Shown here: positions 15,749 through 16,174 of the stretch, one piece after another
How the letters are laid out: each line of letters begins with the position of its first letter
Numbering within the stretch: position 1 is the first letter of the stretch
Virus record (IMG/VR): IMGVR_UViG_3300024999_001421
From: a virus
Reading direction: 5' to 3' (one strand)
Length of the DNA: 64,000 bases
Program-made: the position numbers and the translations under genes
The notes under the pieces: model-generated
Told to the model about the DNA's origin: nothing
Database searches by the model: none
The model's input: only the letters and a program-made list of their open reading frames with translations

Positions 15749-15807
15749 TTCGGCCGTCATCATCAGAGCAGGTAGCCAATCCTGCTGACGCCCGAAGGCG
15801 TTTCGAC
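15749..15807 (-). ncRNA. Type II hammerhead ribozyme
   Basis: GUC-GAAA-CGCC(UUCG)GGCG-UC^AGCAGG(AUUGGCUA)CCUGCU-CUGAUGA-U-GAC-GGCCGA; loop I can pair with the 3' tail as a pseudoknot. Confidence 0.9.
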
Positions 15808-16097
15808 TAGATATACTTTTCAATCAAGTTCCTACTGTCAGTCTGGAACTGTTTTGACTTGAAGCGGATGTTTTGGTCTGCGTGTGACCACATCTCCTGT
15901 AGTTTTTCCTGCGCCAGCTTTGACAGTCTGTTTGCTACTTTTTGCGCTTCCCTGACTGTGCTGTACTCAATACTCCAAATCCAACCAAATCCATTCGGTG
16001 AAATTTCAATATCGCCCATGTGACGCTTGACTTCGATTTCTCCGTTGATACCAAAAGCCTTTTCGGCGGTTCTGACTGCGTTGGCCATGTTTTTCAT
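15807..16097 (-). CDS. 96-aa hypothetical protein flanked by two hammerheads
   Basis: RBS GAGGGGG; stop codon abuts the ribozyme. Confidence 0.75.
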   Translation of the reverse strand: MKNMANAVRTAEKAFGINGEIEVKRHMGDIEISPNGFGWIWSIEYSTVREAQKVANRLSKLAQEKLQEMWSHADQNIRFKSKQFQTDSRNLIEKYI

Positions 16098-16125
16098 GTG
16101 TGTATCCCCCTCGTATTTAGTTTAT

Positions 16126-16174
16126 CCTGCTAACGGGTTTCCCCGTTTTCATCCTCTAGGAATCATCAGGCAGG
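16126..16174 (-). ncRNA. Type I hammerhead ribozyme (variant stem II)
   Basis: CCUGC-CUGAUGA-U-UCC(UAGA)GGA-U-GAAA-ACGGG(GAAA)CCCGU-UA^GCAGG. Confidence 0.8.

Follow-up and report, generated by a model that had tools for sequence, protein, structure and literature searches.

An uncultured groundwater phage carries a type I and a type II hammerhead ribozyme at the first two gene junctions of a minus-strand operon of very small open reading frames (ORFs). Both motifs are conserved hammerheads on the coding strand of this early operon, with complete cores and with covariation in relatives, and ribozymes of different class are swapped for one another at the same positions within the lineage. We propose that the hammerheads process the early polycistronic transcript into single-gene mRNAs, an explanation that we consider probable. 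The first-pass annotation of this DNA had described two hammerheads that bracket one early ORF and yield a self-excising, possibly circularizable mRNA. That interpretation is supported in part; the coordinates and cut sites given for both ribozymes proved correct to the base when read on the minus strand.

The early operon and its two hammerhead ribozymes

The window, by which we mean the whole 64-kb stretch of DNA analyzed, is identified as phage DNA by the terminase, portal protein, and Mu-like capsid protein that it encodes. The stretch is present in five DNA runs from sediment and groundwater metagenomes, and a megablast search against deposited phages matched no close relative. Its source is a new lineage represented by groundwater and sediment metagenomes. 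The best promoter-like site between positions 14300 and 17700 is a near-consensus, sigma-70-type early promoter at 16447-16419 on the minus strand (TTGACA-17-TATACT, 11/12 matches), from which transcription would start near position 16411. The type I and type II hammerheads lie approximately 240 and 620 nt 3' of this promoter, no terminator-like site was found between the promoter and the ribozymes, and the same promoter precedes the leader described below in relatives L087 and L315. Just upstream of the promoter, also on the minus strand, are an ORF for an HTH_17 (excisionase-type) DNA-binding protein at 16498-16698 and one for an HNH endonuclease at 16717-17289.

The first ORF of the operon, ORF62 (16363-16175, minus strand), encodes 62 amino acids without an assigned family, and its TAG stop codon (16177-16175) abuts the type I hammerhead. 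Between the two ribozymes lies ORF96 (16097-15807, minus strand; 96 amino acids), preceded by a conserved leader at 16125-16098 that begins AUAAACUAAAUACGAGGGGG, contains the ribosome-binding site (RBS) of ORF96, and becomes the 5' end of the message after predicted cleavage. No relative of the ORF96 product was found in Pfam, PHROG, or Atlas searches, and the protein was not found in IMG/VR. The next small ORF, at 15563-15390 on the minus strand, encodes 57 amino acids.

The type I hammerhead occupies 16174-16126 on the minus strand, starting directly after the ORF62 stop codon, with a predicted cut between 16131 and 16130, after UUA. Stem I consists of CCUGC/GCAGG (5 bp) and is followed by the core CUGAUGA, stem II (UUCC-UAGA-GGAU), and GAAA. 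Stem III has six pairs and a GAAA cap (ACGGG-GAAA-CCCGU), and the A15.1-U16.1 pair is present. Every invariant core base is found in this copy, and the UUA triplet is a valid NUH cut site. Energy minimization yields exactly the hammerhead three-way junction (−17.5 kcal/mol, z −3.65). When nine relatives were aligned, 88.7% of cells were paired and 10/15 pairs showed compensatory changes, which fell in all three helices; none of 500 shuffles was as good, and controls in which the structure was slid along the alignment reached at most 45% paired. Loop II (UAGA or UAGAGA) is kept across relatives although stem II covaries, and the flanking UAG and AUA may extend stem I beyond a G-A mismatch. A pseudoknot between loop II and the flank was considered and rejected, as the complementary bases are missing in the window. 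A model built from the type I relatives had no match in 849 kb of unrelated viral contigs, and the exact stem II sequence was not found in IMG/VR.

It is conceivable that only the type II copy is active, the type I copy being a relic that cuts slowly or not at all, in which case a single cut would be made and no ORF excised. We regard this as unlikely. In a 1-kb search, none of the Rfam hammerhead models RF00163, RF00008, RF02275, and RF02277 matched the type I copy at E≤10. Stem I is short, no obvious tertiary interaction linking stem I to stem II or covarying pseudoknot was found, and the base of stem II has a U-U at 10.1/11.1 instead of the G10.1-C11.1 pair. Sister copies carry further deviations (A9G in L010 and L249, U4C in L215 and L284, and U15.1-A16.1 in L009 and L195), the core is decayed in L006, and together these suggest relaxed constraint at this position; judged by their sequences, some of these deviating copies may be slow or dead. 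Against a relic stand the complete set of invariant bases in the window copy and the covariation of its three helices. The U-U, which had been flagged as atypical, is confirmed, but it is a documented natural hammerhead variant and the best tolerated, most active mismatch at that position (PMC3088659), and type I membership is therefore not excluded by it. L283 and L301 share this U-U and differ from the window copy at other positions. The U4C and U15.1-A16.1 variants also retain activity, if slower, with U4C sufficient in vivo and U15.1-A16.1 weakly active (PMC3088659). Fully canonical cores with G10.1-C11.1 are found in L240, L302, and the upstream copy in L284, and a high-scoring pistol ribozyme is kept at this position in other relatives.

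As read from the sequence, the type II hammerhead spans 15807-15749 on the minus strand, its first base being the G of the ORF96 TAG stop codon. Rfam model RF02276 matched 15808-15748 over its full length (model positions 1-66 of 66) with 35.7 bits, which is 1.3 bits below the curated gathering cut-off of 37 bits; the E value was 2.5e-5 when 1 kb was searched and 0.0016 for the full window. Its homologues score 37.4 to 45.7 bits, above that cut-off. In order, the motif comprises GUC, GAAA, stem III (CGCC-UUCG-GGCG), GUC with the predicted cut between 15787 and 15786, stem I (AGCAGG/CCUGCU), CUGAUGA, an extra U, and GAC. The invariant core is complete (C3 U4 G5 A6 N7 G8 A9, G12 A13 A14, A15.1-U16.1, H17), and the extra U, which falls between A9 and G10.1, is common to most relatives.

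Loop I (UUGGCU) and the 3' tail (GGCCGA) form the pseudoknot that the first-pass annotation had noted; it is 6 bp long and covaries at three of its six pairs. Across 13 distinct forms of the ribozyme, 99.2% of cells were paired, with 97 to 100% for each helix and compensatory changes in stem III as well as in the pseudoknot; slid controls gave 28 to 59%. The nested active fold is predicted at −17.4 kcal/mol and the pseudoknot duplex at −6.4, against −22.2 for the best alternative nested fold, and by these energy models the active fold is competitive once the pseudoknot is counted.

Neither motif is readily attributed to chance. The heptamer CTGATGA occurs eight times in the 64-kb window, and its only minus-strand occurrences are the two hammerhead cores. 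A generic hammerhead descriptor (core, three helices, NUH) was applied to the window and to 80 loci; apart from these two motifs, its sole matches were three type II homologues. At curated cut-offs, Rfam reported only two tRNAs in the window, both on the minus strand (50218-50290 and 50405-50477; 65 and 62 bits). A lenient scan added only the type II hammerhead, with no twister, pistol, hatchet, or other hammerhead in the window, and the custom models R1 and R2 found no further copies there.

Exchange of ribozyme classes among relatives

Relatives were gathered through IMG/VR terminase relatives, pattern scans, and blastn. Conservation at the DNA level is confined to the intergenic RNA modules, which are 79 to 95% identical, while the ORFs between them are unrelated. 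The arrangement of type I hammerhead, ORF, and type II hammerhead recurs in L301, L240, L283, L215, L010, and L195, and pairs of ribozymes enclose single unrelated ORFs in at least eight relatives; the ORFs at the bracketed position encode 61 to 96 amino acids and are unrelated to each other.

The ribozymes at these junctions are themselves exchanged. A pistol ribozyme occupies the type I position, just 5' of the leader AAACUAAAUA and its RBS, in seven relatives (L081, L084, L089, L090, L091, L011, and L314; 46 to 61 bits against a pistol Rfam cut-off of 34.5 bits), and a pistol scoring 62 bits takes the type II position in L315 and L284. In L284, three ribozymes (type I, type I, and pistol) follow one another around two ORFs. 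Depending on the relative, the ribozyme 5' of the leader is a type I hammerhead or a pistol. As a search probe, the leader pattern AAACTAAATA...GGNGGA was set aside as too unspecific, since it hit more than 117 loci, mostly by chance.

Because pistols, type I hammerheads, and type II hammerheads are exchanged at the same positions, selection appears to act on self-cleavage between cistrons rather than on one structure. That three self-cleaving architectures are found at these two junctions, with the genes they surround exchangeable, argues that the selected trait is the cut itself.

A different view is that the modules persist mainly as junctions at which homologous recombination swaps gene cassettes, with cleavage secondary or selfish. 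This would fit the high identity of the modules around unrelated ORFs. It would also fit L314, where a type II copy at approximately 1370-1430 (plus strand) joins stem I arms of different variants (AGCAGG with CCGGCA) that mismatch; this chimeric copy looks like the product of a crossover inside the ribozyme loop, as expected if crossovers occur within the ribozymes. However, the stems and the pseudoknot carry compensatory changes, which imply selection on RNA structure and not on DNA identity only, and unrelated ribozyme classes at one position offer no homology yet preserve cleavage. As the main reason for the persistence of the modules, recombination is improbable; as an added effect, it is compatible with processing of the transcript.

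Two relatives carry a further structured sequence at a corresponding position. In L009 (2945-3025, minus strand) and L195 (6604-6685, plus strand), two hairpins inside a GUCUA/UAGAC stem follow an ORF stop codon just upstream of the ~100-nt RNA described below, where most relatives have the type II hammerhead or a pistol. The two copies, the only ones found, are identical and had no Rfam match; the element could be another self-cleaver.

The type II core also occurs in metagenome-assembled genomes (MAGs) of Clostridia, Acutalibacteraceae, and Selenomonadaceae (L306-L313), hinting at Firmicute hosts for this ribozyme family. A more distant phage contig that shares the type II core contains a RAGATH-28 RNA (L082, 2114-2193, minus strand; 53 bits).

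Proposed processing of the early transcript

Under the processing model, transcription from the early promoter would yield a polycistronic minus-strand RNA of many tiny genes. Folding right after the ORF62 stop codon as the RNA is made, the type I hammerhead would cut at 16131|16130; the type II hammerhead, its active form held by the pseudoknot, would cut between 15787 and 15786, 20 nt past the ORF96 stop codon. These two cuts should release a 344-nt RNA (16130-15787) with 5'-OH and 2',3'-cyclic phosphate ends. By the coordinates between the predicted cuts, the piece does have the length that had been claimed for it and does carry an RBS, the 96-codon ORF, and a stop codon. The product would be a linear mRNA consisting of the 5'-OH, five bases, the leader with its strong RBS, ORF96, its stop codon, and the UUCG-capped stem III hairpin, after which the 3' terminus would be the 2',3'-cyclic phosphate. 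Upstream, the ORF62 mRNA would also end in hammerhead hairpins, and the downstream RNA would bear the type II stem I hairpin at its very 5' end. From the folds, each kind of ribozyme presumably leaves a stable 3' hairpin on the upstream product.

The purpose of such intercistronic processing would be to give each cistron its own ends and, with these, its own stability and translation, independent of its neighbors. We infer the cleavage, its timing, and its effect on stability or translation. Should the host be a Firmicute, the 5'-OH end could, in line with work on glmS, recruit RNase J1 instead of shielding the RNA.

Multiple prophage hammerheads flank single genes, cleave in vitro and in Escherichia coli, and have been proposed to process single-gene mRNAs (PMC3088659), and in D. 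vulgaris, cleavage in vivo has been shown for type II hammerheads located next to phage-like genes (PMC8782182). Processing of polycistronic phage transcripts into units by ribozymes is a long-standing proposal (PMC3088659; PMC6765202), with the benefit of cleavage unproven for any phage (PMC6765202).

A bolder reading holds that the 344-nt RNA is circularized, by an RtcB-type ligase or by a reverse reaction templated by the type II 3' fragment, into a natural circular, translatable phage mRNA. A bolder reading of a separate kind is that the ~100-nt RNA described below is a new catalytic or regulatory class tied to ribozyme processing. We consider such readings very improbable. Circularization, in which a host RtcB-type ligase or a hammerhead-templated reverse reaction would join the ends into a circular mRNA that is translatable or exonuclease resistant, has in our view only a very slim chance, and we treat it as speculation. 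It draws on several features of the excised piece. The 5'-OH and 2',3'-cyclic phosphate ends suit RtcB (for its mechanism, see PMC8782182), and the piece contains an RBS, an ORF, and a stop codon. The predicted fold pairs the first 30 with the last 40 nt through approximately 10 expected pairs, a degree of pairing that is common for any RNA. The sequence CCUGC/GCAGG is common to stem I of both ribozymes in the window, as had been pointed out, so that the 3' fragment of the type II ribozyme might in principle bring the two ends into register.

On closer analysis, the circular mRNA put forward by the first-pass annotation is unsupported. The CUGANGA core is absent from the excised piece (16130-15787), so no hammerhead can be rebuilt across its ends and self-ligation of the viroid or retrozyme type is not available to it. 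Relatives do not retain the identity of the two stems I; in them, stem I reads UGCCGG/CCGGCA in the type II copies of L215 and L195 and CCCAC/GUGGG in the type I copies of L009 and L195, and either hammerhead may be replaced by a pistol. Among the window's ORFs of suitable size, none showed an RtcB domain or that of another RNA ligase; the window covers 64 kb of a larger genome. RtcB was found in one of five Clostridia or Selenomonadaceae MAGs with the type II core; these MAGs are incomplete and are not the host of this phage, which makes the count uninformative. Spliced or circular products of clustered prophage hammerheads have been sought, and none were detected (Perreault et al. 2011, PMC3088659).

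A very improbable reading is that cleavage is conditional, with the slower variants responsive to Mg2+, to a factor, or to whether the upstream ORF is translated, and that it times early expression or counters a host defense in this way. In its favor, each ribozyme adjoins or overlaps a stop codon and would be partly covered by a ribosome terminating there, a conserved structured RNA of unexplained role follows the type II copy, and Perreault et al. suggested that slower phage variants may be regulated (PMC3088659), but neither ribozyme contains a ligand-binding or switch element, and the active fold is predicted to be the minimum-energy one (type I) or competitive with its pseudoknot (type II).

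Adjoining structured RNAs and known systems

Directly 3' of the type II hammerhead, at 15739-15634 on the minus strand, lies a conserved structured RNA of approximately 100 nt that folds as a three-way junction closed by CCCC/GGGG (core 15734-15640), with A-rich junction strands. Among eleven variants, 97.7% of cells were paired and 8/25 pairs were compensatory. A nhmmer search found one copy per related locus; outside this phage group the element was not found, its copies invariably follow a type II hammerhead, a pistol, or the uncharacterized element of L009 and L195, and it had no Rfam match. The alternative that it is a small ORF was rejected, as the copy in L094 is without a start codon and the stems covary.

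Further along the operon, a long imperfect hairpin with arms AGGUUUUAUC and GAUAAAACUU occupies 15628-15578 on the minus strand (−16.9 kcal/mol, z −3.6), just before the RBS of the next ORF. Sister hairpins are found on the same strand at 15382-15342, 15083-15040, 14813-14774, and 14521-14480. Members of this family are imperfect, span 17 to 21 bp, precede the RBSs of successive tiny ORFs, have z values of −3.6 to −6.1, and often have the arms AGGUUUUACC and GGUAAAAUCU. We infer from these features that they look like intercistronic processing sites of the RNase III type, and host cleavage at such hairpins probably serves, at later junctions of the operon, the role that the ribozymes would have at its start.

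Phage early polycistronic mRNAs are cut by RNase III, as known for T7 in E. coli and SP82 in Bacillus subtilis. The operon described here resembles these in being cut, as proposed, between cistrons at structured sites, with 17- to 21-bp hairpins before most RBSs. Unlike RNase III processing, two junctions would be cut by the RNA itself and would bear 5'-OH and 2',3'-cyclic phosphate ends in place of 5'-phosphate and 3'-OH. In synthetic ribozyme insulators such as RiboJ, a hammerhead placed before an RBS supplies a leader with a defined 5'-OH and shields expression from upstream context; the phage arrangement, in comparison, is natural and paired, and its second ribozyme would set the 3' end. 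In viroids, retrozymes, and the Tornado system, identical tandem ribozymes or designed complementary ends bring the termini together. The phage RNA shares with viroid, satellite, and retrozyme circles, and with Tornado (twister ribozymes and RtcB), predicted cleavage at both ends to RtcB-compatible termini, whereas its two ribozyme topologies differ and the excised RNA keeps no catalytic core.

The closest precedent is provided by the hammerhead clusters of Perreault et al. 2011 (PMC3088659), which include the ardA triple of Agrobacterium tumefaciens and the clusters of Clostridium scindens and Azorhizobium caulinodans. Those clusters and the phage operon have in common hammerheads of mixed type on one strand that flank single genes or short blocks, the genes varying; the type II pseudoknot; the U10.1-U11.1, U4C, and U15.1-A16.1 variants; and the proposal of single-gene mRNAs. 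In the window and its relatives, at least two self-cleaving motifs on the coding strand flank a single variable gene in a phage context, the pattern of a ribozyme-flanked phage cassette. The phage differs from the clusters in its new lineage and sequences, in the exchange of type I, type II, and pistol ribozymes at the same two positions in close relatives, and in the adjoining family-specific structured RNA. The 2011 paper already contains this arrangement, the pseudoknot of type II copies, the U-U variant, and the idea of a circular RNA, and its picture is unchanged by this case. The present lineage contributes the exchange of ribozyme classes at junctions that stay fixed. In addition, the conserved ~100-nt RNA follows the type II hammerhead or its pistol substitute. 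The neighborhoods of pistol, twister, and hammerhead ribozymes described by Weinberg et al. 2015, as cited in PMC4604425 and PMC6765202, show these classes co-occurring near phage genes, mostly in Firmicutes and environmental DNA; here, pistols are found in relatives of the phage (46 to 62 bits), and the window itself has two hammerheads only.

The role of the thousands of self-cleaving ribozymes in bacteria and phages is still an open question (PMC6765202). With type I, type II, or pistol ribozymes at the same junctions and interchangeable small early genes, this lineage offers a clean natural comparison, and it supplies defined constructs with which the effects of cleavage on mRNA stability and translation can be addressed.

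Elsewhere in the window, a nucleotide-metabolism cluster on the plus strand (1149-6975) encodes a nucleoside 2-deoxyribosyltransferase-like protein, ThyX, and dCMP deaminase, and could be a pointer to modified DNA. The structural module contains a plus-strand ORF for a LAGLIDADG endonuclease at 32484-33311, with no Rfam intron match in the window. In two relatives, the structural region contains group I introns (RF00028, 62 to 63 bits) at L006:18949-19240 and L010:19725-20058.
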